Shown here: positions 3 through 58,515 of the stretch, in pieces
Layout of the letters: the number at the start of each line of letters is the position of its first letter
Numbering within the stretch: position 1 is the stretch's first letter
Source: Candidatus Omnitrophota bacterium
Lineage (GTDB): Bacteria; Omnitrophota; Gorgyraeia; Gygaellales; JAQTUX01
DNA: 64,000 bases
Reading direction: 5' to 3'
Assembly: GCA_028707125.1 (NCBI GenBank)
Contig: JAQTUX010000001.1
Coordinates: forward strand, 269,639-333,638
Program-made: the position numbers and the translations under genes
Notes under the pieces: model-generated
What the model saw: only the letters and a program-made list of their open reading frames with translations
What the model was told of the DNA's origin: nothing
Databases searched by the model: none

Positions 3-3000
3 GAGCTGTTTACCGACGACCCGGGGCTTTCAGGCGCGATAGGCGGCGGCGCGGCTACGCAGGAAAGCAGCGGCATCTATCCTCCGGGCCAGGGCTGGAA
101 CACCAACGGCAGCCAGGCAACGGTTACGATGTACACCACAGGCACATACGCGTCAACCGCTCCCCAAAACCGTTCGTATAAGGTGCAGATAGATACGGCA
201 GGCAATACATTTTCCTGGTGGTATATGGACGATACCACCAACTGGACGAATACCGTCGGCGGCAGCGCAGTGGCAATGTCCACCAATTCCGCGGGCACTG
301 ACTTAAACGCCGGGGTCAAGGTGTATTTCAGCGCGGCATCAGGCACTGCCAACGACAGCTGGTATTTCTCCGCCTCAAACGGGACCGCCTATGGCGGGTA
401 TGATTCCTATGCCCAGACAGCCGCCTATACCGCGGGCGAAACAAGGATTTACAAGGACGGGGACCCGTTTTCTCCATATTACAACAAGATGGTATTCCAG
501 AGCGGGGCGACCAAGGTTACCCTTGACCAGCTGGCAGGCACTGTCGCCACCAACGCCACCATCTATAATCCCGCTATTGTCGGCGCCAACTCAGGCGGGC
601 TTACGATGTACAGTTCGGGAAGCTATACCGGTTCCGAGAGCCGCGCGTATCAGGTAAAGATCTCTTCGCAGGGTGTTGCCGGCACAAGCTCTGATAAGTT
701 CCAGTTTAAATACGGCGTCAATGACTGGGGCCCGGTAGGCGGCACAAGCATAACCGGCTCGCAGCAGTCCTTAGGCGACGGTATTTTTATCAGTTTTTCC
801 GAGAGCAACTACACTAACGACGGCACGATCACAGGCGGCAGCTCCTCAAATCCCGACCAGTGGAGCTTTAACGTTGTCGCCGGCTCAACCTCTACCAGCG
901 CCGGCGGCTGGACGGATTCTGGTACAGATGTGTACAGCTCCGCGGTAACCGACAATGTCGCCATTGGTACCACTGTTCCCGGCGGATACAAGTTGAATGT
1001 CAGCGGCACAGCCAACGCCACCACCTTGACAGAAGGCACAAACGCCGTGCCCAACGCAACCGACCACCTCGGCTTCTTTGCCGCAACCACCTCAGCGCAG
1101 CTTGCCGGAGTGCTATCGGATGAAACCGGCTCAGGTGGTGTCGCAGTATTCGCCACATCCCCTACAATCGCCACTCCCATTATTTCAACCTCTGCCACAG
1201 TTCCTCTGGTTATAGGCGGCAGCGCGACCACCAGCGATCTTTCCCTTCAGACCACTTCAGCCGCTGGTGAGGCAGGCGCGGATATGCATTTCCTCGTCGG
1301 CAATAACGGACAGACAGAGGCGATGACCATACTTAATTCCGGCTACGTGGGCATCGGCTCAACTGTCCCCACAGCAGCCCTGGACATAAACGGCAATATC
1401 CAGGTCTCTGGTACCATCACCGGCACCGTTGCCACAGCAGGCGGCTGGACAGACGCGGGCACATCTATGTATCCGACCAATGTGGACGATAACGTGGCCA
1501 TAGGCACAACAGACCCCGGCTCCTACGACTTGAATGTCGCGGGCACAGCCAATATGGGCACTCTATCCATAGGCGGCACTGCAGTCACAGCCAGCGCGAC
1601 AGAACTCAACTTCGTTGACGGGGTAACATCAGCCATTCAGACACAGCTTGATTCAAAGAGCGCGGCAAGCGACACACTTACTGGTTTAGTCCAGTCCACT
1701 GCCGCGGGCACAAGCTACATTACGGGCGGCTCTGTCGGCATCGGGACGACGAGTCCTCAATATTTGCTTGATGTAGACAAATCAGCCACAGGAAACTATA
1801 TTGCTCATATAAAGAATAGCGGGACTGCATCTTACGGGCTTTTTATAGAAGCCGGGACTGATACGGGTGATTATATTGTGAGCGTGGCAAGTAAGACAGG
1901 AAGTAACAAATTTGTAATAAGGGGTGACGGCAACGTCGGTATCGGCACGGTTGCACCAACCGCGCTATTGGACGTCAACGGCACTGCCAATGTTAACACG
2001 CTTTCAATAGGCGACACTACGATCACCCCCACGGCAGCAGAGCTCAACTTCGTAGACGGGGTAACATCAGCCATCCAGACACAGCTTGACGCAAAGGTGG
2101 GCACAAGCACCGCCTTCATAGGCGACGTCACCGGCGCCTACAACGCCACAGTTGTCGGCAACGACTCCCACGACCACACTGCCTCTACCATCTCCGGCCT
2201 GGGCGTCTCTGACTTCACTTCAGCCGCTATCTCCCAGTGGACCAATGACTCCAACTTCATCACCGCGGCAAGCACCATCACAGGGCTCATCCAGTCCACA
2301 GCCGCAGGCACCTCCTACATCACAGGCGGGAGCGTTGGGATAGGCACAGCAGTGCCGGGTGGTAAACTTGATATTTACGCTGACCAAAGCACCGAATACG
2401 CGTTGGTGGCGAGAAACACCGCCGACGCCAACCAGATTACGCATGCCTTTGACGCCAGCGCCGGCAATGCCCTTTTTAGATTGTGGGATGTTAATGGAGG
2501 TTTGAATGTTAATCTAGCTGCCAGTGGAAACAGCTATCTTAACGGCGGCAACGTCGGCATCGGGACGGCAGTGCCGGGTAGCGCATTAGAGGTCCAGGGA
2601 AATGTAACGCTTAACGACCGTTTGATTATGAGCGGTGATAGTATTGGCGCAACTGTTGATACAGCATACAACACGATTAAGGGCGCCATAGGGCCAACTA
2701 TAAACGGCCTAACATTAACCGGGGCATTAGTAGATTCTAACTTTTCAGACGATAATGCAAATATTACAAATGTGTATGGGTTAAAAATAGCAACTGCGGT
2801 TACGGGTCAGTATACTACAACTAATGCCTATGGATTATATGTAGACCAACCCACAGGTGCTACAAATAATTATGGCGCATATATAAACGGCAACCTCATT
2901 GTCTCCGGCACCATCACAGGAACAGTTGCCGCGGCCGGCGGCTGGACAGACGCGGGCACATCTCTCTACAACACCGAGCTGACTGACAAGGTAGGCATAG

Positions 3001-6000
3001 GCACTGCCACTCCTTCCCAGCTCCTGGACGTCAACGGCATTGCTAATGTGAACACGCTCTCCATAGGCGATACCACCGTTACATCCACTGCGGCAGAATT
3101 GAACATATTAGACGGCGTAACAGCCACCGCAACCGAGCTCAACTATGTTGACGGCGTAACATCAGCCATACAAACACAGCTGAACGCCAAGGTAGGTACA
3201 GCCACTTCATTCTCAGGAGACGTGACCGGCGCCTACAACGCCACAGTTGTCGGCAACGACTCCCACGACCACACCGCCTCAACCATCTCAGGGTTAGGCG
3301 TCTCTGACTTCACTTCAGCCGCCATCTCCCAGTGGACCAATGACTCCAACTTCATCACCGCTGCCTCTACCATCACTGGACTGATCCAGTCCACAGCCGC
3401 AGGCACAAGTTACATCACAGGCGGGGATGTAGGCATCGGGACTGCAGTGCCGGGAGAGAAACTTCATGTTTACAAAGAAAGTTTAACTGATAATAGTCAG
3501 GCAAAATTACTCAAGTTAGAAGGGAAGTTTAATGATGCTAGCATAGATAGCGATGATGTAATAGGAATTTCAGTAAAGGCGGTTAACTCTAGTGGGGGAT
3601 CCGGAGAGAATATGATTATTGGTGGCTCATGGGGAGGATCAGCGGTCAATACTTTATTAGCAGTAGATGGCGGCAACGTCGGCATCGGGACGACGGTGCC
3701 CGCGGCGAAATTGCATGTCTCGGCCCCGGCGGTTATTGCCGGCGGGTTTTATTCGGTCGCGGCAAATGACGCTGACGCGGATATCTGGGGTATTTCAACG
3801 ACCTATTATCCATCTCATGGAACAGCAGCCAACCAGTGGGGTATCAAGTGGCAGTCCACGCCGAACGCATTCTCTTTTGTGGGGAATGGCAGCGAGAAAT
3901 TAAACATCGATGTGGATACGGCAGGGCATATTTCGATGGTCGTGAACGGCGGCAACGTCGGCATCGGCTCAGCCGTGCCAGTTGCGAAACTTGATGTTGT
4001 CGGGACTGCCGAAGTGGACGGCCTCTCCATAGGCGGTACAGCAGTCACTCCCACCGCGGCTGAACTCAACTACGTTGACGGCGTAACCTCTGCCATACAG
4101 ACACAGCTTGACGCCAAGGTAGGCACAGCCACTTCGTTCTCAGGCGACGTGACCGGCGCCTACAACGCCACAGTTGTCGGCAACGACTCCCACGACCACA
4201 CTACCTCTACCATATCAGGGCTGGGTGTTGCTGACTTCTCCTCAGCCAACATCTCCCAGTGGACCAATGACTCCGGATATTTCAATACCAGTAACGACGG
4301 CGCAGGCAGCGGTTTGGACGCGGATATGGTGGATGGGTTGCATCCTACGCAATTCTTCAACGCCCACGGTCAGAATCACGGCACATATACGGACTTCAAT
4401 ACGCCTACAGATTTTGGATTTAGATACATTGTGGGTACCACAAACGGCCCTGGCATAGCCGGCGCAAGCCAATACTATAATCTTGGCATAGGGTTAGGTA
4501 ATGATTATGCCTATACAAGTTACGCTATGCAACTGGCGATTCCGAGAAACTTAAGCACTCCATATATATCTGTGAGATATAGAGAGAATGGAGCTTGGGG
4601 GTCGTGGTATAAGATTTATGCCGGATATGCTGATACCGCGGCCGCGCTTTCCAGCATGAACATCAGTCAGTTTACCAATAATTCCGGTTACTTTAATACT
4701 AGTAATGACGGCGCGGGAAGCGGCCTGGATGCTGACCTGCTGGACGGCCAAAGCAGCGCTTATTATATGACTGCCGCAACCGACAATTGGGTGAATACGA
4801 CCGGGGACACGATGAGCGGGAATCTGTATTTCAATAATTATGGGCTGGGAGTCATCGGCACCTATAGTGATATAAGATATCAGGGCGTATTTGCCATGGG
4901 CGATGCTTATAAGCTCGCTCTGGACGGTACGACATCAGGGACTTTATATGGCATTGCCTGGACCCATAGCAATATCGGAGGCCAATCCAAGGCGGGGTTA
5001 AGTCATCAGGCATTGTTTATGACAAATGGCGTGACTCAGACAGCAATAGGAACGGGTATATGGACGCTTGGCGGCTATACGCAAAGCGGGACAAGCACGA
5101 ATGCTTTTATGGGCAGCGTCGGCATCGGCACAGTGGCGCCGGGAGCGAAGCTGCATGTGACAAGCGCCAATACCGGAGCAGGGTTGTTGAGGTTGGATAA
5201 TACCGGTGGTTCAGCCGGGGATGTAAACGGGGTAGATTTTTATCATAATAACGGAACGTATTTACAGGCGTTTATACGCGATGAGATTCTGAGCAGCTGG
5301 CCCACGAAATTACATTTCGGCGTTGCCTCAACGAGCAACAACGCCGCGACAAAGATGACCATACAGGGGTCAAACGGCTACGTGGGCATCGGCACAGTGA
5401 GCCCGGCGGCGCATCTTCAGGTCGGCACAGGCACTCCCGGCTCTGCCACAGGCGCGGGCGACCTGTATGTGGCAAGCGACCTCGAGGTTGATTCCACCGC
5501 CTATCTTGACCTGGACGCGCGGGTAGGCCGCGACTTTATCGGCACAGCCGCCACTTCGTATATGTATATGACCGGCACGCTCACGGTTGACCTGGACAAC
5601 GACAACAATGGTACGGACAAGTTTTCTATAAGGGACGGCGGCAATACCGAGATATTCTACGTGAATGAAGATAACGGAGGCGGAGGCAATGTTGTGGCAA
5701 AGGGAGTCACCGAAGGCTCATACATAGGGTTATTCAAGGGCTTGGGTTCGCTTCCGGGCTACGGCTCCAGCCGTTATCCGACGCTGAAGACGGATTACTC
5801 CTACTTGTATTTCTCCGTTGCCGGCGCGTACTCCGCGTATATGGGCTCTAACGGCGTCCTGACCGCCCAATCCAGCCGCGAGAAGAAGGAGAACTTTAAG
5901 GAGCTTGACTTTGATAATGTCCTGGCAAAGATTGATAAAATGCCGGTTATGGAGTGGAACTACAAGAACGAAGAAGATTCCATAAAGCACATCGGCCCGT

Positions 6001-6179
6001 TTGCCGAGGATTTCCACGCGCTTTTCGGACTGAACGGCACCGATAATACAATGATCGGCCACAGCGACCCTCCGGGCGTTGCCCTCGCCGGCGTAAAAGG
6101 GCTGTATAGGAAGGTGAAGGAGCAGGAGAGGGTGATTGAAGAGCTGGAGACAAGGATAGCGGCGTTGGAGAAGAAGTAA
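3..6179 (+). CDS. Giant Thr/Gly/Ser-rich tail-fibre-like surface fibre protein, 5' end cut by the window edge
   Basis: The frame of the 129..6179 ORF stays open back to nt 3 (ELFTDDPGLSGAIGGGAATQESSGIYPPGQGWNTNGSQATVT then MYTTG). The module 'TMYxxGxY...R.Y.V.I' occurs at the first Met and again ~160 aa later, so the true start is probably upstream. Many copies of G(N/S)VGIGTxxPxxxLxV, ELN(F/Y)VDGVTSAIQTQL and GLDADxxDG motifs, as seen in phage tail-fibre-like proteins. I found no Cys in the 2016 aa shown. Confidence 0.85.
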   Translation, partial: ELFTDDPGLSGAIGGGAATQESSGIYPPGQGWNTNGSQATVTMYTTGTYASTAPQNRSYKVQIDTAGNTFSWWYMDDTTNWTNTVGGSAVAMSTNSAGTDLNAGVKVYFSAASGTANDSWYFSASNGTAYGGYDSYAQTAAYTAGETRIYKDGDPFSPYYNKMVFQSGATKVTLDQLAGTVATNATIYNPAIVGANSGGLTMYSSGSYTGSESRAYQVKISSQGVAGTSSDKFQFKYGVNDWGPVGGTSITGSQQSLGDGIFISFSESNYTNDGTITGGSSSNPDQWSFNVVAGSTSTSAGGWTDSGTDVYSSAVTDNVAIGTTVPGGYKLNVSGTANATTLTEGTNAVPNATDHLGFFAATTSAQLAGVLSDETGSGGVAVFATSPTIATPIISTSATVPLVIGGSATTSDLSLQTTSAAGEAGADMHFLVGNNGQTEAMTILNSGYVGIGSTVPTAALDINGNIQVSGTITGTVATAGGWTDAGTSMYPTNVDDNVAIGTTDPGSYDLNVAGTANMGTLSIGGTAVTASATELNFVDGVTSAIQTQLDSKSAASDTLTGLVQSTAAGTSYITGGSVGIGTTSPQYLLDVDKSATGNYIAHIKNSGTASYGLFIEAGTDTGDYIVSVASKTGSNKFVIRGDGNVGIGTVAPTALLDVNGTANVNTLSIGDTTITPTAAELNFVDGVTSAIQTQLDAKVGTSTAFIGDVTGAYNATVVGNDSHDHTASTISGLGVSDFTSAAISQWTNDSNFITAASTITGLIQSTAAGTSYITGGSVGIGTAVPGGKLDIYADQSTEYALVARNTADANQITHAFDASAGNALFRLWDVNGGLNVNLAASGNSYLNGGNVGIGTAVPGSALEVQGNVTLNDRLIMSGDSIGATVDTAYNTIKGAIGPTINGLTLTGALVDSNFSDDNANITNVYGLKIATAVTGQYTTTNAYGLYVDQPTGATNNYGAYINGNLIVSGTITGTVAAAGGWTDAGTSLYNTELTDKVGIGTATPSQLLDVNGIANVNTLSIGDTTVTSTAAELNILDGVTATATELNYVDGVTSAIQTQLNAKVGTATSFSGDVTGAYNATVVGNDSHDHTASTISGLGVSDFTSAAISQWTNDSNFITAASTITGLIQSTAAGTSYITGGDVGIGTAVPGEKLHVYKESLTDNSQAKLLKLEGKFNDASIDSDDVIGISVKAVNSSGGSGENMIIGGSWGGSAVNTLLAVDGGNVGIGTTVPAAKLHVSAPAVIAGGFYSVAANDADADIWGISTTYYPSHGTAANQWGIKWQSTPNAFSFVGNGSEKLNIDVDTAGHISMVVNGGNVGIGSAVPVAKLDVVGTAEVDGLSIGGTAVTPTAAELNYVDGVTSAIQTQLDAKVGTATSFSGDVTGAYNATVVGNDSHDHTTSTISGLGVADFSSANISQWTNDSGYFNTSNDGAGSGLDADMVDGLHPTQFFNAHGQNHGTYTDFNTPTDFGFRYIVGTTNGPGIAGASQYYNLGIGLGNDYAYTSYAMQLAIPRNLSTPYISVRYRENGAWGSWYKIYAGYADTAAALSSMNISQFTNNSGYFNTSNDGAGSGLDADLLDGQSSAYYMTAATDNWVNTTGDTMSGNLYFNNYGLGVIGTYSDIRYQGVFAMGDAYKLALDGTTSGTLYGIAWTHSNIGGQSKAGLSHQALFMTNGVTQTAIGTGIWTLGGYTQSGTSTNAFMGSVGIGTVAPGAKLHVTSANTGAGLLRLDNTGGSAGDVNGVDFYHNNGTYLQAFIRDEILSSWPTKLHFGVASTSNNAATKMTIQGSNGYVGIGTVSPAAHLQVGTGTPGSATGAGDLYVASDLEVDSTAYLDLDARVGRDFIGTAATSYMYMTGTLTVDLDNDNNGTDKFSIRDGGNTEIFYVNEDNGGGGNVVAKGVTEGSYIGLFKGLGSLPGYGSSRYPTLKTDYSYLYFSVAGAYSAYMGSNGVLTAQSSREKKENFKELDFDNVLAKIDKMPVMEWNYKNEEDSIKHIGPFAEDFHALFGLNGTDNTMIGHSDPPGVALAGVKGLYRKVKEQERVIEELETRIAALEKK
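2035..2345. repeat. Intragenic direct repeat copy A (~310 bp) in the fibre gene
   Basis: Encodes AAELNFVDGVTSAIQTQLDAKVGT..FIGDVTGAYNATVVGNDSHDHTASTISGLGVSDFTSAAISQWTNDSNFITAASTITGLIQSTAAGTSYITGG. The 48-nt run ccggcgcctacaacgccacagttgtcggcaacgactcccacgaccaca at 2131-2178 is identical in copies B and C. Confidence 0.9.
3135..3440. repeat. Intragenic direct repeat copy B
   Basis: Near-identical protein block (ELNYVDGVTSAIQTQLNAKVGTATSFSGDVTGAYNATVVGNDSHDHTAST...GLIQSTAAGTSYITGG). The identical 48-nt run lies at 3226-3273. Confidence 0.9.
4060..4270. repeat. Intragenic direct repeat copy C (shorter)
   Basis: ELNYVDGVTSAIQTQLDAKVGTATSFSGDVTGAYNATVVGNDSHDHTTSTISGLGVADFSSANISQWTNDS. The identical 48-nt run lies at 4153-4200. 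A more diverged partial copy is at ~1600-1740. Confidence 0.85.
5871..6176 (+). other. C-terminal intramolecular chaperone / autoproteolysis domain (peptidase S74, endosialidase-tailspike type)
   Basis: SSREKKENFKELDFDNVLAKIDKMPVMEWNYKNEEDSIKHIGPFAEDFHALFGL...GVALAGVKGLYRKVKEQERVIEELETRIAALEKK. It has the S-x-x-x-K-x-N start, the W.Y..E....H.G.IAQ-like core and a terminal coiled coil typical of this domain. Confidence 0.8.
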
Positions 6180-6187
6180 GACCAAAA

Positions 6188-6308
6188 GCGTATATCAGAT
6201 TATCAGTGTGTCAGTTAGAGTTTATCAGTTTATCAGAATATCAGAGAGAATGACCAATGTCCAATTTACCAATGACGAATGAAATCACAATGACTCAAAT
6301 CCCAAATA
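6188..6308. repeat. Left arm of a long imperfect inverted repeat built from TATCAG units
   Basis: Five TATCAG units (6193, 6201, 6223, 6231, 6239). 6188-6198 gcgtatatcag is the exact reverse complement of 6759-6769, and 6269-6283 ccaatgacgaatgaa is the exact reverse complement of 6677-6691. Confidence 0.8.
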
Positions 6309-6655
6309 GAAAGTATGATTTGCGGGAGAGAACTGCTAAATTTGGAGAAAACATAGTTAATTTCGCGAAGAGCATACCTGAAAATAGTGTGAATAGGCCA
6401 TTAATAAGTCAGCTAGTAAGGGCAGGTACGAGCGTAGGAGCTAATTATTGTGAAGCAGACGATGCCTCAACAAGGAAGGACTTCTTTTACAAAATTGGGA
6501 CCTGTAGGAGAGAATCAAAAGAGTCTAAGCATTGGCTTAGGATGATAACGACTGCTGTGCCTTCTTTGAAGGCTGAAGCCGAACTGTTCTTAAACGAGGC
6601 TCAAGAGTTAAATTTGATATTTTCCGCCATTATTAATAGGGCCGGAAAACGTTAA
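6257..6655 (+). CDS. Four-helix-bundle protein ('23S rRNA intervening-sequence protein' family); the true start may be the ATG at 6290
   Basis: YDLRERTAKFGENIVNFAKSIPENSVNRPLISQLVRAGTSVGANYCEADDASTRKDFFYKIGTCRRESKESKHWLRMI matches the family hallmarks (..QL.RA.TS.GAN..E......KDF..K......E..E...WL). The first 11 codons of the track ORF lie inside the left repeat arm. The region is visibly more AT-rich than its neighbours. Confidence 0.85.
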   Translation: MSNLPMTNEITMTQIPNRKYDLRERTAKFGENIVNFAKSIPENSVNRPLISQLVRAGTSVGANYCEADDASTRKDFFYKIGTCRRESKESKHWLRMITTAVPSLKAEAELFLNEAQELNLIFSAIINRAGKR

Positions 6656-6769
6656 TTGGGTATTGGGATTTGGACATTCATTCGTCATTGGGATTTGGTA
6701 ATTGTGGCTTAAGCTGATATACCGTTCTCTGATGTTCTCTAACTGATAAACTGATGTTCTGATATACGC
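6656..6769. repeat. Right arm of the inverted repeat (CTGATA units)
   Basis: ttcattcgtcattgg (6677-6691) and ctgatatacgc (6759-6769) pair perfectly with the left arm. The ~70-nt stretches between them are collinear and partly complementary (attgggattt / aaatcccaaat, ctaactga, ctgataaactga). Confidence 0.8.
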
Positions 6770-6846
6770 AGTTAACCCTGATAACCTTTACTTATCCGTA
6801 ACCATAACCGATAAACGTAACCCAATACCCGTTCCCTCCCTAGATT

Positions 6847-6874
6847 TTCATTGTAAAAGCCGCGAAAATATGAT
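6847..6874 (+). promoter_or_regulatory. Candidate sigma70-like promoter for the long operon
   Basis: TTCATT (6847-6852), 16 nt spacer, TATGAT (6869-6874), followed by TATAAA; ~60 nt upstream of the first operon gene. The promoter consensus of this organism is unknown. Confidence 0.25.
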
Positions 6875-6932
6875 ATAAAATCAGTTATACACCGAGTCCC
6901 GAGCCCTCCCAGCAGGAGACAATTAATACAAG

Positions 6933-7709
6933 ATGTCCGGTTATTTTCTGAGGCTAATCAAGGCGCGGCATATTCTGCGAAGCATGGTCCTGAAGAACTT
7001 GAAGGACAAATATGTCGGCTCAACACTGGGTATCTTCTGGGCGGTGATAAACCCCCTGTTGATCATGTCGGCCGTATCCTTTGTTTTCACTCAGGTGATG
7101 CAAACCCCGATACGGCGCTACCCGCTGCTGGTATTAAGCGCCTACCTTCCCTGGAATTTCTTCGTTAACTCCGCCACTGAAAGCGCCGCCTGCATAAGGC
7201 AGAATCAAGGCATACTCTCTCAATACACCATCCCCCGCGAGGCCATACCCGTATCAGTCGCGCTCGCCGATTTCCTGAACTTTTTATTCGGATTCGCGGC
7301 GATGCTGCCGATATTCATCTTCATGAACAGGGGGGCCGCGGGATGCCTGTGGCTGCTGCCTTTGGTAATGGCCCTGCATCTGGCATTCACCGTCGGGATC
7401 TCCTTATTGTTCAGCATCATCAATATATATTTCAGGGATTTTTCCCAGCTCCTGGGAGTGGGAATGCTGTTCTGGTTCTGGGTCACGCCGGTCTTCTACA
7501 CCCTGGAGATGATGCCTGCCGGCCTTCGCGGGGCATTCCTGGCCAACCCCGCCACATGCTATACGGTTATTTACAGGGAATTATTATATAACGGCCGCTG
7601 CGGCGGCATATCCATGTGGGTATTGGCCGTTATCTTCGCTTTGGCGAGTTTGGCGGGTGGATACATCTTATTTGCCGCCAAAGAAAAGGATATCCTCAAG
7701 CATATTTAG
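6933..7709 (+). CDS. wzm: ABC-2 type polysaccharide/polyol-phosphate export permease (Wzm/TagG-like)
   Basis: 258 aa with ~6 hydrophobic segments. The N-terminal LKNLKDKYVGSTLGIFWAVINPLL motif is typical of ABC-2 permeases. It sits immediately upstream of the cognate ATPase. Confidence 0.85.
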   Translation: MSGYFLRLIKARHILRSMVLKNLKDKYVGSTLGIFWAVINPLLIMSAVSFVFTQVMQTPIRRYPLLVLSAYLPWNFFVNSATESAACIRQNQGILSQYTIPREAIPVSVALADFLNFLFGFAAMLPIFIFMNRGAAGCLWLLPLVMALHLAFTVGISLLFSIINIYFRDFSQLLGVGMLFWFWVTPVFYTLEMMPAGLRGAFLANPATCYTVIYRELLYNGRCGGISMWVLAVIFALASLAGGYILFAAKEKDILKHI

Positions 7710-10421
7710 ATGATAACGCTGGAAGACGTTTGGCTGAAATACAGGATAGCGTTCAAGGAAGGCGCGAGGGCCGTTTGCGAGGATTTCTGGGCGCTTAAGG
7801 GCATAGACCTGAATGTCGGCAAGGGAGAGTGTTTCGCGGTCATCGGAGAGAACGGCTCAGGCAAGACCACGCTCCTGAGGGTGATCAGCGGCATGCTAAT
7901 GCCTGACAAGGGCAGGGTGCGCCTGGGAGGAAGGGTCGCCGGGCTTATGGAGATACAGGCCGGTTTCCATCCTGAACTGACCGGCAGGGAGAATATCTAC
8001 AATATCTCGGCGCTTTCAGGCCTGAGCGCCGATGAGACAGGCGCCTGTTACGCGGACATGGTTGAGTTTGCCGCCATCGGCAGGTTCATCAACGCCCCGG
8101 TAAAGACATACTCCCAGGGCATGCTTGTGCGCCTTGCCTTTGCCATAGCCATACACGCGCGCACCGACATATTGCTGGTTGACGACATATTCGCGGTAGG
8201 CGATATTTATGCCCGGCGCAAGTGCATTAATAAGATGTTTGAGCTGAAGGATAAGGGCCTGACCATTATTTTTGTTTCTCATGACCTGGATATTGCCAGG
8301 CGGCTGTGTAAAAGAGGCGTGCTGCTCAGGGAAGGCAGGGTTATCAGGGCCGGTTCAATAGACGGACTCGTCAGTTATTATCTTGAGACGGTAGGCAATA
8401 AGGAAGGTATAGCCCTGCTGCAAAAAGGGCGGCTGGCAATTATTTTTAATAACGGCAAGCTGATCATCAGGTGGAACGACTCCGCTCTTACCAAGGGCGC
8501 GGCCGGGCATACGGTGATGAGCTCTTCGGGCAGGACATATCAGTCAGATACCGCCTCCTGGATTATCCGGCAGCCGGCGGCAGCCGATGAGATCGTTGCC
8601 GTAGGCAGGTGGCCGGATATGCCGGCTGAGCTTATCTGGAAGATACGCTGCCGCGGCGAAAAGGAATTCAGCTGGGATGTAACTCTGCAGGCGCGCGCAC
8701 AGGCCCGGATAGAGGATTACACGGCCAGATTGATCCTGACCGACGAATACGAGGGCTGGTTTACATCGCAGGAGGAATACGTTTTTCCGGAGGCGTTCCT
8801 GCATGAGAACGAATGGCAGAGCCGCCGGATAGACGATCATCTTAACTGGCTGATAGGGTTAAAGACGGGAGCCGATAGCGGCGAAGGCCTGCCAACGCTT
8901 GTTTTAGACAGCTCAGGCGCGGATAAACAGGGCGCCTGCCAGATCGGCAATACCGGCATTGAGGCCTCTGCCAGAGGTATTCAGTTCAATTACGTTAATC
9001 CGGAACCAGAGCATGCCGCGGGCAGCTATAAGTTTTTTTCAACCGGCGTGAAGTTATTTGAGGAGCGGGACAGGCAGGATTTTGAATGTTATATGGCGCG
9101 GGCAAGGCAGGCCGGCAGGCGCAGGATCATCAGCCGCGGCCCGCTCGCCCTGTGTTGCGGGCAGCGCAAAATAGAGATTTTCCTGCGGGATGCGCTTTTA
9201 AGCAGCGGCGCGGGGCTGGATACGAAATTCATCTGGCAGGGCCGTACCTACAGCGCCGCCGGAGGTAACTGGTCCGTAGAAAAAGAAGGAGATAATTATC
9301 TTGTAGTTAATATCTTTTGGGGGCCCGAAGCGCCTTTTTTCCAGGTATGGAGAATGGAACTGCGGGATGAGTCCGCCATTTTCTGGCAGGCGGATATGGA
9401 AATAAGAGATGGGCTGGAGATCAGGAACAGGCAGGTTGAGCTTTTTCTCAGCGGCCGATATGACAGGTGGTTTACGCCTTCGGAAAACGGCGACTTTGGG
9501 GCAGTGGAAAAAAAAGGCAACACAGTCATACTAAGTAAATACATAAACGATTTTTCCGGCGTAGAACAGTCCTGCCTTATGCCGGCGGTTACCTTCGCCA
9601 ATCAAGACGGCCGCGCCAGAGTGTCGTATATTTCCCGGGGCCAGGACAAGGAATTAAATACGAAGCTGCATTATCTGGAGATAGATCCCGCCGCTGACGC
9701 GGCGCTTGAAGCAGGCAGGCACGCCTTTTTTAAGGGGGCCATAAGGATAGCGCCCAGGCAGGGACAAAAAGGCGTTGACGCGGTTGTCAATAATAACGGC
9801 GCGGCCGCGGCGATAAATTTTAACGGCGTTTCTCTGGATTTCAGGCACGGCAGGATGCGTCTTTTCTATGAAGGCGTTGAATTGACAAAAGGGCTGGGCC
9901 TTTACTCTGCGGTTTTGCATGAAGGCAACTGGCATGATTCTTCGCAGGGACTATGGAAGGTCGAGGCCTCGGACAGGGAAAGGTTCGTCGCCGTGGGCCG
10001 CTGGCCGTGGCTGCCTGTCAGGCAGGAATGGGAAGTAACGCTATTGGATGGCCGCGATATCATCTGGCGCATAACCAGGGATACCCGGGACGGCTTTGAT
10101 CCCGACAAGGAGCAGGTTAACCTGATGCTGTCGGATAATTACCGGGAGTGGTTTGTCCGGGAAAGGGCGCGGGGAAGGTTTCCCGAAGAGTTTGCCGAGC
10201 ATACCCGCGGCGGGTTCTGGGAGCGGTTATGGTCGGCGGCAGCGCAGTCGCCGGTCGGCGCCAAAGGGCCTGGGCTGCCGTCTGTCCTCCTGGACTGTTC
10301 AGAGAGCCCGGTTCCCGGCCGCCTGTGCATTGAGAACACGGACGCGTTATTCAAGGCCAGGGTCCTGCAGTGCGAATCGGCGCAGCAAAAACATTTTAGC
10401 GGAAAGATAAAGATATGCTGA
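7710..10421 (+). CDS. wzt: ABC exporter ATP-binding protein (Wzt/TagH-like) with a ~670-aa C-terminal extension made of three copies of an unassigned module
   Basis: Walker A GENGSGKTT, signature-like YSQGMLVRLAFA, Walker B ILLVDDIFAVGD, H-loop VSHD within aa 1-230. The ATG abuts the stop of the permease gene. The extension (nt ~8400-10418) has three ~200-aa repeats at ~8415-9075, ~9125-9760 and ~9805-10418. Confidence 0.9.
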   Translation: MITLEDVWLKYRIAFKEGARAVCEDFWALKGIDLNVGKGECFAVIGENGSGKTTLLRVISGMLMPDKGRVRLGGRVAGLMEIQAGFHPELTGRENIYNISALSGLSADETGACYADMVEFAAIGRFINAPVKTYSQGMLVRLAFAIAIHARTDILLVDDIFAVGDIYARRKCINKMFELKDKGLTIIFVSHDLDIARRLCKRGVLLREGRVIRAGSIDGLVSYYLETVGNKEGIALLQKGRLAIIFNNGKLIIRWNDSALTKGAAGHTVMSSSGRTYQSDTASWIIRQPAAADEIVAVGRWPDMPAELIWKIRCRGEKEFSWDVTLQARAQARIEDYTARLILTDEYEGWFTSQEEYVFPEAFLHENEWQSRRIDDHLNWLIGLKTGADSGEGLPTLVLDSSGADKQGACQIGNTGIEASARGIQFNYVNPEPEHAAGSYKFFSTGVKLFEERDRQDFECYMARARQAGRRRIISRGPLALCCGQRKIEIFLRDALLSSGAGLDTKFIWQGRTYSAAGGNWSVEKEGDNYLVVNIFWGPEAPFFQVWRMELRDESAIFWQADMEIRDGLEIRNRQVELFLSGRYDRWFTPSENGDFGAVEKKGNTVILSKYINDFSGVEQSCLMPAVTFANQDGRARVSYISRGQDKELNTKLHYLEIDPAADAALEAGRHAFFKGAIRIAPRQGQKGVDAVVNNNGAAAAINFNGVSLDFRHGRMRLFYEGVELTKGLGLYSAVLHEGNWHDSSQGLWKVEASDRERFVAVGRWPWLPVRQEWEVTLLDGRDIIWRITRDTRDGFDPDKEQVNLMLSDNYREWFVRERARGRFPEEFAEHTRGGFWERLWSAAAQSPVGAKGPGLPSVLLDCSESPVPGRLCIENTDALFKARVLQCESAQQKHFSGKIKIC

Positions 10422-42983: not shown

Positions 42984-44177
42984 ATGAACATCCTGATGGT
43001 CCATCCTCATGATCTGTTCTCGGCGTCCGAACCTTGGACCATACGCATTGTTTCCATCGCCAGGGAATTTGTTAAAAGCGGCCACGGGGTAAAGCTGGTA
43101 TATTTTCCGCTGGAATGGGAAGGCCGTAGGCCGCGTAAACTTGGCCCCCATATTGACTGCTATCCCTTTTGCCGCAGGTCCGGCCCGCATATTTTAGCCG
43201 CCAATACCCTGCGCCTGTCAAAGTTAGCGGCCTGGGCGGATATCGTGCATTTTCAGAAGTGCTTCCATCAAGCGTCTATCCCCAGCATTATCGCGGCCCT
43301 GTTGAATAACAAGCCGCTTCATTATGATTGGGATGATTGGGAGGCCAAGATCTATGAGATCTCCACGCGGCCGGGTTTCTTAAGCTGCCTCATCCGGAAT
43401 TTCCTGGGTGCCCTTGAGGCATTTATCCCGCGGATAGTTGATACGGTGTCCGTTGCCAGCCGTAGATTAGAAATAGAGTGCAGGCGCCTGGGGGTAGGGC
43501 CGGACAGGATATTTGAGGCCCATGTCGGCGCAGATATTGACAGGTTCCGCCCCGATATTTCGGGTTCGGCGGTAAGGCGGCGCTATAATATAGGCAAGCC
43601 GCTTGTTTTGTATCTCGGCCAGCTTCACGGCGGCCAGTATGCCGAACTGTTCATCAGGTCCGCGGCAAAGATAACCCGCGGTTCCGGCCAGGACGCCGTG
43701 TTCATGATAGCGGGCGACGGATACCGGCGGCGGGAATTGGAAGAGCTCAGCCGCGGCCTGCGGCTTAACGGAAGCATGATCTTTACCGGGCCGGTCCCCC
43801 ATAGCGATGTCCCCGAATACATCGCCGCCTCCGACATATGCGTCGCCTGCTTTGAGAAGAACGACGTTACCTTGTGCAAGAGCCCTCTTAAGATAGCCGA
43901 ATATATGGCTTCGGGAAAGGCGATAGTCACCAGCGATGTGGGAGAGGCGCCGCGCATGGTAGGGCAGGCGGGGTTGATCACGGCCCCGGGAGACCCTGAT
44001 TCGTTAGCCGAGGGGATATTAAAGCTTCTGAGGCGGGAGGGTCTAAGGAAAGAGATGGCTTCGCGCAGCCGCCTGAGGGCGGAAGAGAAGTATAATTGGG
44101 CTGTAACGGCAGCGAATCTGATGCGGGCATACGGGAAGGCGGCGCGGATAAAAGGCCGCAAGGGAGGAAGGTCCTGA
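42984..44177 (+). CDS. Glycosyltransferase, GT4 family (GT-B, group 1)
   Basis: MNILMVHPHD...IRIVSIAREFVKSGHGVKLV, and C-terminal FMIAGDG...PLKIAEYMASGKAIVTSDVGE (EX7E-like region). Confidence 0.8.
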   Translation: MNILMVHPHDLFSASEPWTIRIVSIAREFVKSGHGVKLVYFPLEWEGRRPRKLGPHIDCYPFCRRSGPHILAANTLRLSKLAAWADIVHFQKCFHQASIPSIIAALLNNKPLHYDWDDWEAKIYEISTRPGFLSCLIRNFLGALEAFIPRIVDTVSVASRRLEIECRRLGVGPDRIFEAHVGADIDRFRPDISGSAVRRRYNIGKPLVLYLGQLHGGQYAELFIRSAAKITRGSGQDAVFMIAGDGYRRRELEELSRGLRLNGSMIFTGPVPHSDVPEYIAASDICVACFEKNDVTLCKSPLKIAEYMASGKAIVTSDVGEAPRMVGQAGLITAPGDPDSLAEGILKLLRREGLRKEMASRSRLRAEEKYNWAVTAANLMRAYGKAARIKGRKGGRS

Positions 44178-44179
44178 CA

Positions 44180-46561
44180 ATGAATACTACCGTTAAAACG
44201 CGGAGGCCGGCGGAAAGGATCATTTTCGCGGCCATCCTGCTTCTTATAATAACCGTGCCTTTGATCTTCAGCGGCAAAACCAGCCAGATATACGGGCTTA
44301 TCAAGATCGCCGCCATGGAATTCCTGCTTATCCTGCTTACGGGCCTTTGGGTCTTTAAGATGAACCGCAGGGGGGATTTTAAGATCATTTTTACTCCGGC
44401 AGGTATACCTTTGTTGATCTTCTCCCTTATTTGCGCGTTATCACTTTTGCGCGCCATAAATCTGCGGGAAGGGATAGTGCATCTGGCGCAGGTTTTATCT
44501 TACGTCGCCCTTTTCTTCATAGTAGTAAATAATATTGAATCTAAAAAAGAGGTCTCGCTGATAGTTAACGCCGCGATCTTGACGGCATTTTTGAGTTGTA
44601 TCTACAGCATGTACCGCGACCAGGGCCCTTATCTGTTTACCGCCATACGCCAGACATATATATCTACCTTCGGCCATCCGGTATTCTTCGCTCAGTTCCT
44701 GGGGCTTGTCGCGCCTGTGTGCCTGGCGGTTTTTCTGCAGAGCAAAAGCCTCCGGTCCAAACTATGCAGCGGCATCGCCCTGGCCACGCTCTTCTTCTTT
44801 TTATTATTGACCAAGGCAAGGGGGGCGTGGCTTGGCCTCATATGCGCCTCGCTTGTTGTCATTTTCATCCCGGCGGTTATGCATAAAGAGCGCAGATATA
44901 GATTCTTCCGCTTCATCCCCTGGAAAAGCATAGGCATATTCCTTCTTTGCCTTTTACTGCTTTTTTCCGGCCTGTCCGTATTCGCCCATTTCCGCGTCTG
45001 GCATAAGGAGATGGTAGAGCGTTTTTATTCGGCATTCAGCCTTTCCCATGTAACCAACGTAATGCGCGTTGAGGTATGGAAGAATACCTGGCAGATGATC
45101 ATGGGCAGCCGTTTATCAGGGGTGGGCGCGGGGAATTTTCCCGTTATTTATCCTGCTTACCGCAGCGTGGCCGAGATCTCGATCACGCCGGAAGGCAGGA
45201 CGTATTTAAGCGCCCATAACGATTACCTGCAGGTCCTGGCTGAGACGGGGATATTCGGCCTGGCCTGTTTTATGTTCATTATTTATTCTTTATTCAGAAT
45301 GGGCATATCTGTCCTGAAGAAGACCGGGGACAGGGACCTGTATTATATAACTCTGGGTATCCTGGGCGCGATCAGCGTGATCCTCGTGTACGCGCTTTTT
45401 AACCCTTCTTTTCAGATCCCTTCCACGGGAATGATATTCTGGCTTTGGGCGGGGTTGCTCGGCGTATTATACAAGAAGGAGTGCCTGTCCGCGCGCGAAG
45501 AGGCAGCTCCGAAGCCGAAGGGCCCTCTGGCCCAAAGCGCGATACTGGCGGTTACCTCAGCCGCGGCCATATATCTGGCCGCGCTGCTGATCAGGCATTT
45601 TGCCGCCGACTTATATTTTACCAAGGCAAGAGCATATAGAGAATCGGGGAGAGGGCTGGAGGCGATAAGTATCCTGGAAAGGTCCGCCCTGCTTTATCCC
45701 GGTAATTACGAAGCATATTTTTTGCTGGGGAACTATTACCAGGAACTGGAAAGGTTTAATGAGGCGTTCGCCCAGTATGAGGCCGCCCTGGAATTGCATC
45801 CGTACCAACCGATCGTTTTTAATAATCTGGGGACGGTATATTTTAAGACAGGGCAGTATCAGAAATCTGCCGTGGCCTTTAACAGGGCGGTAGACCTTAA
45901 TCCCCGCTACTTCGGGGCGTATTACAATCTTTATCTGGCCTATAACGCGATGGGGCAGCAGGAGAAGGCCCAGGAGTGCATACGCCTGATCTATGAGTTA
46001 AAGCCCGATTTCCTGGGCGGGATGTATATGGATCAGGAACAGTATGATGCCGCGATCGTGGCCTATGCCGCGGCTATTGAGAAGGATCCCGGAAATTACG
46101 GAGCGCATTTTAATCTGGGCCTGACCTATAAGATGAAGGGCCTGGATGATGAAGCGGCCGATGAATTCAGGAAGGCGATCGCGCTTAAGCCGGACCACGT
46201 GGGGGCTTACCGCAATCTGGGATTTCTGTTGTTTAAGAGTTTCAAAAGATATGATGAGGCAATAGAGATCCATAAGAAGCTGCTGGCCTTGGTGCCGGTG
46301 GATATAGAAGGCCACCTGAACCTCGGCCTGCTGTATACGGAGTCGGGAGATCACGCGCTCGCGGAACAGGAATTCAGGAAAATAATCGGGCTTAATCCTT
46401 ATTACGGCAAGGCCCATACCGCGCTGGCGGCGCTGTACCGCAGGCGGAATGATTTAGACGCTGCGGTCAGGGCGCTCAAGGAGGCGCTGGCGATAAGCCC
46501 GGAATCCTCCGAAATAAAAGTGATGCTGAACGATATTTATAAAGAAAAATTAATGCGGTAG
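44180..46561 (+). CDS. O-antigen-ligase/polymerase-like (Wzy_C) polytopic membrane protein with C-terminal TPR domain
   Basis: The ATG at 44180 (MNTTVKTRRP) lies 3 nt after the upstream stop and is preferred to the track start at 44096. More than 10 hydrophobic segments, the Wzy_C hallmark SAHNDYLQVLAETGIFGL, and ~8 TPR repeats over aa ~500-790. Confidence 0.8.
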   Translation: MNTTVKTRRPAERIIFAAILLLIITVPLIFSGKTSQIYGLIKIAAMEFLLILLTGLWVFKMNRRGDFKIIFTPAGIPLLIFSLICALSLLRAINLREGIVHLAQVLSYVALFFIVVNNIESKKEVSLIVNAAILTAFLSCIYSMYRDQGPYLFTAIRQTYISTFGHPVFFAQFLGLVAPVCLAVFLQSKSLRSKLCSGIALATLFFFLLLTKARGAWLGLICASLVVIFIPAVMHKERRYRFFRFIPWKSIGIFLLCLLLLFSGLSVFAHFRVWHKEMVERFYSAFSLSHVTNVMRVEVWKNTWQMIMGSRLSGVGAGNFPVIYPAYRSVAEISITPEGRTYLSAHNDYLQVLAETGIFGLACFMFIIYSLFRMGISVLKKTGDRDLYYITLGILGAISVILVYALFNPSFQIPSTGMIFWLWAGLLGVLYKKECLSAREEAAPKPKGPLAQSAILAVTSAAAIYLAALLIRHFAADLYFTKARAYRESGRGLEAISILERSALLYPGNYEAYFLLGNYYQELERFNEAFAQYEAALELHPYQPIVFNNLGTVYFKTGQYQKSAVAFNRAVDLNPRYFGAYYNLYLAYNAMGQQEKAQECIRLIYELKPDFLGGMYMDQEQYDAAIVAYAAAIEKDPGNYGAHFNLGLTYKMKGLDDEAADEFRKAIALKPDHVGAYRNLGFLLFKSFKRYDEAIEIHKKLLALVPVDIEGHLNLGLLYTESGDHALAEQEFRKIIGLNPYYGKAHTALAALYRRRNDLDAAVRALKEALAISPESSEIKVMLNDIYKEKLMR

Positions 46562-52211: not shown

Positions 52212-53067
52212 CCAGATCAGATCCATAAAGAAGCGTATGCGGGCAGTACCAGGTTTAGTTATAGATAACTTTGGCCTGTCTTCGCATCTTGGGAAGCGGC
52301 TTTCCCCGGGATGCCGCGCCTGCAAGGAGAACAAGTGGACGACCGTCTTTATCGGCAAGGCCTGTAATTGTTCATGCTATTTCTGCCCTCAGCCGCATAA
52401 AAAGCCGGCCCTGGGAAGCAGGGAAGATAATGACGGTATGATCAGCACAAGTTTCTCAAGGGAATCTTTTGAGCATCTTTTAGTTAAGCTGAAGAACGCG
52501 GCCCATAACGGCTCCATACGCGCGGTGGGATACTCCGGAGGCGACCCCCTTCTTTATGCCGAAAGGATTATTTATTTTGCCGGAGAATTAAACGACTCCG
52601 CCCCATCTTTATATCAATATATTGAAACCAATGCCAGATCGCTGAACAAGAAAATGGCAGGGGAACTTCGCGGCGCCGGCATCAAAGAAATACGCTTTAA
52701 TCTTGCCGCCACGGATTATTCTCCGTCGATAATAAAGAAGATGAAATACGCGAGGAAGGCCATGCCTTTTCTGACGGTTATCCTTCCGGCGTTAAGGCAG
52801 ACGCCAAAAATGATCGCGAGGCATATCGGAGAATTTATTGACATCGGGGTAGACCAGATCACTTTATGCGAGATGGTCGTCAACAGCAACAATGAACGCT
52901 ATTTCAAAGGCGAGTCCTTTTACAGTATGGGTAATGAAGAAAGGTATCCGATTTTCAGCAGGCATGTGATATACGACGTTATGAGCACCGCCGCTAAAGA
53001 GAAGTGGCCAATTACCATTAACGAATGCTCCGCCTTGAATCATCAGAAACCCGGCCCGCTGTTCTAA
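52195..53067 (+). CDS. Small radical-SAM protein (activase-like)
   Basis: The ATG at 52195 (MESLNDQIRS) is preferred to the track start at 52144. VFIGKACNCSCYFCPQP (CX3CX2C), YSGGDPLLY. Confidence 0.65.
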   Translation: MESLNDQIRSIKKRMRAVPGLVIDNFGLSSHLGKRLSPGCRACKENKWTTVFIGKACNCSCYFCPQPHKKPALGSREDNDGMISTSFSRESFEHLLVKLKNAAHNGSIRAVGYSGGDPLLYAERIIYFAGELNDSAPSLYQYIETNARSLNKKMAGELRGAGIKEIRFNLAATDYSPSIIKKMKYARKAMPFLTVILPALRQTPKMIARHIGEFIDIGVDQITLCEMVVNSNNERYFKGESFYSMGNEERYPIFSRHVIYDVMSTAAKEKWPITINECSALNHQKPGPLF

Positions 53068-53085
53068 GGGCCCGACAGGACTAAC

Positions 53086-54105: not shown

Positions 54106-54153
54106 AAGTCCTTATGCTTCAGTTATCCGTAACCGGCAGCGTTGTTTGATTAA

Positions 54154-55731
54154 ATGAATAAGGTACCCTATACAAAATCAATGTTCATCAAAGACATGCT
54201 TTTAAGCCGGAGAAAGCTGGCGGTTTATATCCATATACCGTTTTGCCGGCGCAAATGCGCGTATTGTTATTTCTTTTCGCGCGCCGGATCAACCCTGTCC
54301 GAACGAGACAGCTATATCCGAAAGGTATGCGATGAGCTGCGCATTTACAGCGAGGTATTCCGGAGGCGGCGCGACAGCATAGCGGCGGTGTACATAGGGG
54401 GCGGCAGTCCTTCTTTGCTTAATAAGAGGCAATTGAGATCCCTGTTGTCCTGCATAGATGAGGTTATAAGGCCGGCAGAATTCCCTTCCGTTAAACAGCT
54501 CACTGTGGAGGTGAACCCCGAGATGTTCGCGCGGCGGGAATGTGAGGAAAAACTGGCTATAATGAAGTCGTATTCGGTCAACCGCCTTAGTTTTGGCGTC
54601 CAGGCCTTTAACAATGCCGTGCTCAGAAAGAATGGGTGCATTCACCGCCTGTCGCATATATACAATGCGGTCAATAAGGCAACGCTTAACGGATTCAGTT
54701 ACAATATTGACCTGATGTTCGGCCTGCCGGGAAGCGATTTTGGGTCGTGCATTGATACCATATTTTCCGCGATAGGCATACTGCCGCCCCATATTCAGCT
54801 CAACGCCCCCATTCATTACGTGCGCGGCAACAGGCCGTCCGGCCGCGTGCTTAGCCCCGTAGCGCAGGGCCTGCTGGCCATGATCGCCAGGATACTGTTG
54901 TTGAAGCTGCGTTATGGCCATAGCCCGTACCGTTATTTAACAGAGCTTTCGTTAAAGCGCGATGACCTGAATGTATTTTCGCATCTCCAATGGACGGGGT
55001 CTTCAGACGTGATAGGGATCGGTTCTTCCGCGCGGTCAGTGTATATTAAACGCAATATTATCGCGCGGAATACGGCCGATACCCGCAAGTATTGCATGAG
55101 CGATAGGGAATTTACTTTTGACAAGGCGAACTTCAATTATAAGCGGCTGCTGAAGCAGGGAGTTATAGAAGAATTCTTTAAGGAGAGATTGATAAAACCG
55201 CCCCTGCCCCTGCGCCGTTGCGGCAAGGTTATTATACGCAAAAAGAGCGCGGCCTATGTTCTGGCAGTTTTAAAAGGCATAGAAAGCGAGGTCAACGGCT
55301 TAAGTGACGCGGCATTTTTCCATTACCGTCAGGCCATGGATATTATACCCGGTAATTCTCTCGCGTACTTTTGTATGGCTGACCTGTTCCTGCTCGAAGG
55401 CAGGCCCGGCCCGGCCCTGGAATATATCAGCGGCTTTCCCCTGAATAATAACAGCGCGCGGATGCTTTCAATCCTGTTCTTGCTGGCGAAGAATGCCGGA
55501 GAGGAAAGATGCGTAAGGATACTGGCAAAGAAACTAAAGGATGACGGGGTGGAAATTAACGGGCTGGATATAAGGCATTATCACTATGCAGGCCTTCGCC
55601 CTCCGATAAAGCGCATGCGCCGGCTATTTAAGGAGTGCAGAGCGCTGGCGCGGATGTGCGGGATGACATTAGATTTTAAAGATCCCCTTAAAAGGGAGCA
55701 TGAGGGATTAAAACTTATTAAATCATTATGA
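54154..55731 (+). CDS. HemN/HemW-like radical-SAM protein (class C methylase-like fold) with C-terminal helical/TPR-like extension
   Basis: LAVYIHIPFCRRKCAYCYFFS, VYIGGGSPSLL, RLSFGVQAFN. C-terminal ~170 aa are helical (AAFFHYRQAMDIIPGNSLAYFCMADLFLLEGRPGPALEY). Confidence 0.8.
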   Translation: MNKVPYTKSMFIKDMLLSRRKLAVYIHIPFCRRKCAYCYFFSRAGSTLSERDSYIRKVCDELRIYSEVFRRRRDSIAAVYIGGGSPSLLNKRQLRSLLSCIDEVIRPAEFPSVKQLTVEVNPEMFARRECEEKLAIMKSYSVNRLSFGVQAFNNAVLRKNGCIHRLSHIYNAVNKATLNGFSYNIDLMFGLPGSDFGSCIDTIFSAIGILPPHIQLNAPIHYVRGNRPSGRVLSPVAQGLLAMIARILLLKLRYGHSPYRYLTELSLKRDDLNVFSHLQWTGSSDVIGIGSSARSVYIKRNIIARNTADTRKYCMSDREFTFDKANFNYKRLLKQGVIEEFFKERLIKPPLPLRRCGKVIIRKKSAAYVLAVLKGIESEVNGLSDAAFFHYRQAMDIIPGNSLAYFCMADLFLLEGRPGPALEYISGFPLNNNSARMLSILFLLAKNAGEERCVRILAKKLKDDGVEINGLDIRHYHYAGLRPPIKRMRRLFKECRALARMCGMTLDFKDPLKREHEGLKLIKSL

Positions 55732-58497: not shown

Positions 58498-58515
58498 AAC
58501 AAAGGGAACATCCGG

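Follow-up and report, generated by a model that had tools for sequence, protein, structure and literature searches.

Is a giant gene that resembles a phage tail fibre, lying next to a glycan locus in the DNA of an Omnitrophota bacterium, part of a virus or part of the cell? The gene opens a 64,000-nucleotide stretch of a Candidatus Omnitrophota contig (JAQTUX010000001.1), here called the window. A sequence-only reading, made from the DNA letters without database searches, had described its product as a domesticated cell-surface fibre with a self-cleaving chaperone at its end, and had proposed that the neighbouring glycan genes modify it. Following up this description, we conclude that the product of the gene is probably a trimeric surface fibre that the Omnitrophota bacterium itself makes and secretes, built of modules of the phage-tail-fibre type, and not a virion part. 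The database label of the protein and its thousands of relatives were known already; what differs from known chaperone-matured trimeric fibres is that this one is a giant, Sec-exported bacterial protein.

The fibre protein and its two ends

Frame +3 of the window is free of stops from base 3 to the stop codon at 6177-6179. These 2058 codons, in DNA of 52-56% G+C, cannot have arisen by chance; the first in-frame ATG listed in this part of the gene is at base 129. A database search matched the translation, with 100% identity across the window part, to MDD4909316.1 (P0001 in our set), a 3008-residue protein encoded on the 1,261,957-bp contig of a Candidatus Omnitrophota metagenome-assembled genome and named “tail fiber domain-containing protein” by NCBI. 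Positions 3..6179 (+ strand) therefore hold the C-terminal 2058 codons and the stop of the fibre gene, whose start lies about 2.85 kb upstream of the window. In other words, the window carries the last two thirds of the fibre, while its signal peptide, its N-terminal beta-sandwich domain and about 900 more residues are encoded upstream. Residue numbers below count from the first codon in the window, unless they are given for P0001 or for the full-length protein.

That the reading frame ran open at the window edge had been recognized from the sequence, and the description of the protein as Cys-free and rich in Thr, Gly, Ser, Ala and Asn is also accurate. We counted no Cys in the window part of the fibre, and its main residues are Gly (13.6%), Thr (12.2%), Ala (10.8%), Ser (9.5%) and Asn (6.9%), with Ser and Thr together making up 22%. 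Low Cys content is a trait of the whole fibre family, at 0.26% across its members versus 2.3% in the other proteins of the window.

The C-terminal end of the protein matches Pfam Peptidase_S74 (PF13884) over residues 1957-2008, with a score of 38 bits against a cut-off of 22. Pfam, profile, AlphaFold2 (AF2) and Foldseek results together define a 102-residue S74 or intramolecular chaperone auto-processing (ICA) domain with a long C-terminal helix (5871..6176, + strand). The sequence QSSREKKEN of the fibre aligns with S-D-x-R-x-K-E-N of its relatives, and the Ser and the Lys are invariant in alignments of both seven and 28 sequences. Ser1957 (5871..5873, + strand; Ser2907 in P0001) is the predicted nucleophile and would be the first residue of the released chaperone; Lys1962 (5886..5888, + strand; Lys2912 in P0001), five residues past the Ser, is the predicted general base.

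A profile built from seven relatives matched a series of solved structures, comprising the ICA domain of MyRF (7dc3, E 3.5e-13), the long tail fibre of phage S16 (6f45), 8jov, T5 pb1 (8hqz) and phi29 gp12 (3gud). These matches came only with the profile; a direct phmmer search of the C-terminal 659 residues against the PDB gave none. We modeled the last 369 residues with AF2 as a monomer, which is reliable for the chaperone part only. Block-mean pLDDT (predicted local distance difference test) scores in the chaperone region lie mostly at 80-96, dropping to about 60 in a single block, and the model shows a 36-residue helix at 333-368. Foldseek returned 7dc3 (probability 1.0, E 6e-3), the endosialidase chaperone 3gw6, and 3gud as top matches of the modeled chaperone. 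The Pfam score, the invariant Ser/Lys dyad and the profile match to solved ICA domains thus bear out the S74 intramolecular-chaperone ending that had been read from the sequence. By analogy with these proteins, we predict self-cleavage between Gln1956 and Ser1957, which would free a 102-residue fragment.

A search with the last 659 residues found 14,853 relatives among 1.84 billion representatives. In 53 of the 150 relatives listed, the chaperone occurs together with a conserved module that lies immediately before the predicted cleavage site (5685..5870, + strand; residues ~1895-1956) and has the pattern ..GSLPGY..YPTLKTDYSYLYFSVAGAYSAYM..GVLTAQ; we refer to it below as the pre-cleavage module.

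At the other end, the full-length protein begins with MNAKRIDLSKVFILSLLSLLLSSIFWNSSFA/APPREMY (the slash marks the putative cut), which we read as a Sec signal peptide with a signal peptidase I site: its n-region is basic, its hydrophobic core spans 16 residues, and Ser and Ala occupy -3 and -1. Relatives have equivalent cleavage sites just before the same conserved domain, for example SFA/AI, AFS/DV, VFA/EL and GFS/AP, and signal-peptide-like N-termini are present in at least 26 of the 48 Met-starting (complete) relatives of the C-terminal module. The fibre has no pilin-type N-terminus (class III, G/FTLIE), bearing the Sec-type signal instead. The domain that follows (residues 32 to ~125 of the full-length protein) gave a confident beta-sandwich model, in which ~80 residues score above 90 in pLDDT. 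No NCBIfam model matched the fibre, and Pfam gave no match in the first 1082 residues of the full-length protein. As a separate observation, six S74-ending proteins (P0039, P0081, P0095, P0107, P0110 and P0142) have a recurrent AWT(E/N/G)P...PP motif right after their N-terminal hydrophobic segment, a possible sorting or processing signal.

The body of the fibre consists of repeated modules. In the window part, a strict pattern finds the turn GxVGIG[TS] 10 times and a looser pattern 13 times, the whole protein having 17 copies, while ELNxxDGVT occurs five times and GLDAD twice; the latter two motifs had been correctly identified from the sequence, but the “dozens” of GxVGIGT turns had been overestimated. 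At the DNA level, a 300-nucleotide block corresponding to the ELN..DGVT...NDSHDHT part of a 309-365-residue super-module is present in three copies on the + strand (2029..2328; 3124..3423, 86% identical to the first; and 4051..4350, 71% identical to the first). The copies are spaced 1095 and 927 nucleotides apart, and therefore the shaft grew by tandem duplication of 365- and 309-residue super-modules. Every copy of the block contains the motif NDSHDHT; in the T4 gp37 trimer, His-x-His motifs bind metal ions on the trimer axis.

Other modules of the body, likewise on the + strand, tie the protein to different sets of relatives. Residues 1-340 (3..1022) form a module common to other giant Omnitrophota-type fibres, with 42-51% identity to P0002, P0003 and P0005 and 37% to P0004. 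The module at residues 354-484 (1062..1454) is also found, with 57-66% identity, in P0007 and in the phage-borne fibre P0009 of locus L016. Finally, two GLDADxxDG motifs (residues 1437 and 1574; 4311..4736) each start a module for which the representative library contains thousands of relatives.

Relatives of the fibre and the secretin locus

We retrieved nine loci of relatives with called genes, and eight of them are cellular surroundings, with neighbours that include tRNA synthetases, ribosomal proteins S6 and S18, SSB, Rho, chemotaxis genes, UbiD/UbiA and a P-type ATPase. The ninth, L016, encodes the S74-less fibre P0009 on a phage contig with YqaJ, RecT and Phage_rep_O. Two further relatives, P0067 (640 residues) and P0091 (727 residues), combine a prepilin-type N-terminal methylation motif (N_methyl) with the pre-cleavage module and Peptidase_S74, and are 39-41% identical to the last 369 residues of the window's protein; in the literature we found no mention of this pilin and tail-fibre chimera. 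Taken together, the signal peptide, the contexts of the relatives and the scarcity of phage matches (see below) argue that the family is cellular and exported. The case for a cell-surface rather than a phage fibre, first made from the sequence, is strengthened by the signal peptide, the eight cellular loci and the prepilin-fused relatives.

Tandem arrangements also occur. Locus L039 (1-17843) encodes two tandem giant S74-terminated proteins of 4042 and 3280 residues, with CarboxypepD_reg and collagen repeats, beside a chemotaxis operon. Locus L006 (6763-12383) encodes two tandem short versions of 780 and 578 residues, both with the N-terminal domain and each followed by a secreted protein of ~190 residues; the S74 ending of the first is 40% identical to that in the window.

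On Omnitrophota-type contigs, relatives of the N-terminal domain (36-45% identity over 150-390 residues) have a common neighbour. Wherever an Omnitrophota locus extended far enough upstream, in seven of seven cases (L002, L003, L020, L022, L023, L025 and L042), a secretin gene lies just upstream of the N-terminal-domain relative; L023 and L025 in this set are almost identical copies of a single locus. Four of the seven (L002, L003, L020 and L022) contain a full set of secretin, T2SSE ATPase and pseudopilin in a conserved row: two unassigned proteins, a TPR-secretin, a T2SSE ATPase with MshEN, a TPR membrane protein, a pseudopilin (N_methyl and T2SSJ), a ~530-residue Big_13 protein and, last, the fibre. 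The row was established by Pfam in L022 and by BLAST in the other three. In L023, L025 and L042 the fibre directly follows the secretin, and L042 encodes P0003, among the closest named relatives; an additional locus, L017, shows just the last gene of the row upstream of its fibre. From this linkage in relatives, the secretin machine may provide a route for the fibre across the outer membrane. We also considered a link between the secretin operons and the window through GT-C/TPR proteins and rejected it, since the TPR membrane protein of the relatives' operons has only its TPR part in common with proteins of the window.

Several observations weigh against a secreted, trimeric fibre of the cell. 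The surroundings of this gene were read on their downstream side, and the upstream side was judged through relatives. A 539-residue neighbour from the secretin operon, used as a query, found 99 relatives, none of them on the 1.26-Mb source contig, so that for this copy the secretin linkage is putative. The signal peptide was called by inspection of the sequence, and the structure matches of the N-terminal domain are generic beta-sandwiches only (E 0.01 or worse). Outside the chaperone, pLDDT in the AF2 monomer of the last 369 residues falls below 60; because the shaft is modeled this poorly, its trimeric nature is something that we infer. The fibre has no binding or enzymatic domain that would point to a target, and some of its modules do occur in phage fibres, both in P0009 and in annotated phage proteins.

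A cellular, secreted fibre of this kind could be made as follows. The 3008-residue precursor would be exported by Sec and cut by signal peptidase I after ..NSSFA, leaving a mature chain that begins at the beta-sandwich domain, as the sequence and the conservation of the site suggest. As in other members of its family, the S74 chaperone would bring three chains into register and nucleate folding of the beta-rich shaft. It would then cut itself off at Gln1956/Ser1957 by means of Ser1957 and Lys1962, in analogy with endosialidase, phi29 gp12, T5 pb1 and MyRF. The mature fibre, with ~2875 residues per chain, would be held by its N-terminal end, and the pre-cleavage module would form the distal tip. 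To judge from the relatives, the fibre may pass the outer membrane through a secretin, type II secretion or type IV pilus-like machine, or dock on it. Its likely role is attachment to a host, a prey cell or a surface, which fits proposals that Omnitrophota depend on hosts or live as predators.

The downstream glycan and radical-SAM cluster

Directly after the fibre gene lies a hairpin-flanked cassette (6188..6769, + strand), in which a four-helix-bundle gene (6257-6655; PF05635/TIGR02436, 23S_rRNA_IVP or Avd-like) stands between 41-nucleotide inverted arms (6188-6228 and 6729-6769). The cassette RNA folds with a long closing stem (z = -6.7 versus shuffles). The hairpin layout recurs around the PF05635 genes next to S74 fibres in L015 (8687-9119) and L013 (9581-10102) but not around that in L017, and the inverted repeats around the genes in the window, L015 and L013 are 31-41 nucleotides long. 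The cassette looks like a portable element of the type originally recognized as 23S rRNA intervening sequences, here placed between genes beside fibres, and it may either be mobile or mark a site of RNase III processing. Its portable nature means that recurrence beside fibres needs no functional link, and the four-helix-bundle neighbour is probably unrelated in function to the fibre. Small GIY-YIG nuclease genes, found directly next to fibre genes or within the secretin operon (L041, 11497-11769; L003, 7107-7397), look like selfish insertions in these reduced genomes, as does the PF05635 cassette. Prompted by the Avd-like gene, we considered the fibre as the target of a diversity-generating retroelement and rejected this: the scanned reading frames include no reverse transcriptase, and no repeat in 6180-6933 pairs with the 3' end of the fibre gene. 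Rfam identified no RNA family in the window.

Further downstream, and serving here as context only, Pfam identifies a Wzm-like ABC-2 permease (6933..7709, + strand) and a 903-residue Wzt/TagH-like ATPase (7710..10421, + strand). The match of the latter is limited to its first ~230 residues, and the ~670-residue extension that follows, which matches no family, may be glycan-binding or enzymatic. About 25 radical-SAM genes, with GDSL-TPR genes interspersed, begin at 10415 and occupy the space between Wzm/Wzt and Wzy_C. From 42984 there are glycosyltransferases, a Wzy_C and TPR protein (44096..46561, + strand; Wzy_C 71 bits), a Bac_transf initiating enzyme, and then a PMT_2 (GT-C-like) protein (55728..57464, + strand).

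The radical-SAM array is an observation in its own right. Across 10415-42825 and 52144-62890 it comprises ~25-28 genes on the same strand, and this size appears exceptional. Most encode radical SAM and SPASM paralogues of 330-355 residues with 20-45% mutual identity, several have a B12-binding or an N-terminal TPR part, and four GDSL-lipase-TPR genes lie in their midst (19163, 32047, 41614 and 59398). The position of the array, between the Wzm/Wzt exporter and the block of glycosyltransferase, Wzy_C and Bac_transf genes, suggests that radical-SAM enzymes extensively tailor either an exported polymer or peptides.

Could the fibre be the protein acceptor of the glycan made by this cluster, with the Wzy_C-TPR protein as O-oligosaccharyltransferase? 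This idea, put forward in the sequence-only reading, is compatible with a surface fibre and reasonable in principle. Surface-layer (S-layer) glycoproteins with their glycosylation (slg) clusters in Geobacillus and Paenibacillus, and the targets of PglL/PilO, likewise place a surface protein by an ABC-transporter-dependent glycan cluster with a Wzy_C-family protein, and the Wzm, Wzt, glycosyltransferase, Bac_transf and Wzy_C genes of the window form what we take to be the gene set of slg clusters. Fibre and cluster lie on the same strand, no terminator was predicted on the + strand from 6179 to 6933 (in a weak scan, for an uncharacterised phylum), and the Ser and Thr content of the fibre would suit O-linked glycans. 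One relative, in L015, is followed by genes for GlmS, an epimerase and an aminotransferase.

The comparative evidence is contrary. L015 is the only one of the eight cellular loci with sugar-nucleotide genes, and Wzm, Wzt and Wzy_C occur in none of the eight, which encode distant homologues of the fibre and not strict orthologues; the glycan linkage is thus not kept in relatives, unlike in the slg and PglL/PilO systems. The adjacency described from the sequence holds for Wzm/Wzt at 6933-10421, whereas Wzy_C is 38 kb from the fibre, with the ~25 radical-SAM genes between, and PMT_2 is 49.5 kb away. Between the fibre and wzm lie the hairpin-flanked cassette and a 278-nucleotide gap with a promoter-like site at 6845-6874 (from the same kind of weak scan). 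For the Wzy_C protein itself, models do not separate a WaaL lipid-A-core ligase, a Wzy polymerase and a PglL-type transferase, and the resemblance of the relatives' secretin-operon membrane protein to proteins of the window goes no further than TPRs, as described above. We therefore regard the downstream glycan and radical-SAM cluster as a unit separate from the fibre, and consider glycosylation of the fibre by it, a proposal only, to be unlikely.

Phage fibres, other known systems and the role of the family

Somewhat less probable again is that the gene encodes the tail fibre of a prophage, a tailocin or an extracellular contractile injection system (eCIS) whose other genes lie upstream of the window. 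Such an origin would account for the S74 ending, for the modules also seen in proteins annotated as phage tail fibres or minor tail proteins, and for the S74-less relative P0009 on its phage contig; fibres of eCIS, too, can bear S74 (PMC12923769). The tail-fibre likeness noted from the sequence is real for some modules, such as the ELN..DGVT block, which matches two environmental tail fibres as well as minor tail proteins of mycobacteriophages; the chaperone domain matches a few other phages. Yet only 36 of 50,697 phage genome records match the fibre, each covering at most 18% of the query and in short modules only. The three matches in PHROGs are weak and belong to families of unknown function. 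Among viral sequences in IMG/VR, the C-terminal alignment found 17 loci, all confined to the chaperone (query residues 247-369) and without the pre-cleavage module, and the N-terminal domain found none; in the genome and metagenome collections, the same method with this domain gave 9 and 22 loci, respectively. As a whole, the fibre is close to no known phage fibre.

The surroundings also speak against a phage, tailocin or eCIS component. As noted from the sequence, no phage genes follow the fibre in the 58 kb downstream: a Pfam scan of every + strand reading frame of at least 150 residues between 6257 and 62890 found no capsid, terminase, baseplate, integrase or reverse transcriptase, and the window contains no tRNA. 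The G+C content of the fibre gene agrees with that of the neighbouring DNA, and eight of nine loci of relatives are cellular. Moreover, the relatives keep a Sec-type signal, yet assembly of virion and eCIS parts takes place inside the cytoplasm.

It is very unlikely that the protein acts as a depolymerase of polysaccharides, secreted or bound to the surface, in the manner of the S74-terminated endosialidases and tailspikes. Phage depolymerase spikes commonly end in S74 domains, and the relative P0009 has a weak Beta_helix match, but Pfam, NCBIfam and PHROGs find no catalytic or beta-helix domain in the fibre, whose body is made of repeated fibre modules. Hardly credible, lastly, is the earlier suggestion that the radical-SAM/SPASM enzymes modify the fibre by cross-links, epimerisation or in other ways: it is prompted by proximity (the first radical-SAM gene, at 10415, is 4.2 kb downstream on the same strand), whereas the loci of relatives have no adjoining radical-SAM array (a single cofH-like gene lies 10 kb off in L011), the known SPASM maturases work on short precursor peptides whose genes adjoin their own, and the absence of Cys from the fibre makes thioether-type (sactipeptide or ranthipeptide) cross-links impossible.

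How does a cellular surface fibre of Omnitrophota compare with systems already described? Phage fibres and tailspikes such as the K1F/63D endosialidase, phi29 gp12, T5 pb1 and the distal fibre of the S16 gp37 type share with it a C-terminal S74/ICA domain that has a Ser-x4-Lys dyad and ends in a helix. They also share a repetitive, beta-rich and presumably trimeric body and, in part, homologous shaft modules. In contrast to them, the Omnitrophota fibre has a Sec signal peptide and, at 3008 residues, two to three times the typical length of a phage fibre. It is chromosomal, its 58 kb of downstream DNA hold no phage genes, its closest C-terminal relatives are secreted or pilin-fused, and its pre-cleavage module was not found in IMG/VR. 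The ICA domain of MyRF and MrfA, eukaryotic transcription factors bound to membranes, heads the PDB matches in the profile search as well as in the fold search (7dc3) and is likewise non-viral, and there the same domain trimerises and self-cleaves; the host protein and the purpose differ, with release of a transcription factor on one side and maturation of an extracellular fibre on the other.

Within the same phylum, the “Archaeovorins” are large exported proteins, with a proposed part in contact with prey or host, that are encoded after a locus of the secretin/GspE type; a secretion locus of comparable kind thus precedes giant Omnitrophota genes (bioRxiv 10.1101/2023.11.21.568195). This is the same kind of linkage as in the relatives of the fibre's N-terminal domain, and for the gene studied here it would follow from those relatives. 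Archaeovorins are, however, more than 10 times longer than the fibre and have other domains. The Omnitrophota preprints that we searched make no mention of tail fibres, S74 or endosialidase, and in the searched literature we found no paper describing bacterial S74 fibres in Omnitrophota or Patescibacteria.

A wider scenario, which we offer tentatively as a possibility short of an even chance, is that ultra-small, host-dependent Omnitrophota and Patescibacteria took over phage receptor-binding fibres together with their self-cleaving chaperone as organelles for attachment to hosts or prey, exported by Sec and displayed through or on a secretin or type IV pilus-like machine, in some cases as pilin-fibre fusions. 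The 3008-residue protein would then be a giant member of this group, lengthened by tandem duplication of super-modules of 310-365 residues.

The self-cleaving chaperone is well studied in viruses and in eukaryotic MyRF, and names in the databases show that bacteria employ it in secreted fibres of their own. One practical consequence is that S74 matches are unsuitable as prophage markers in Omnitrophota and Patescibacteria. If host-dependent nanobacteria do attach by means of these fibres, cells would here clearly have put a viral receptor-binding device to new use, and the fibres would be candidate determinants of partner specificity, a property that is hard to study without cultures.

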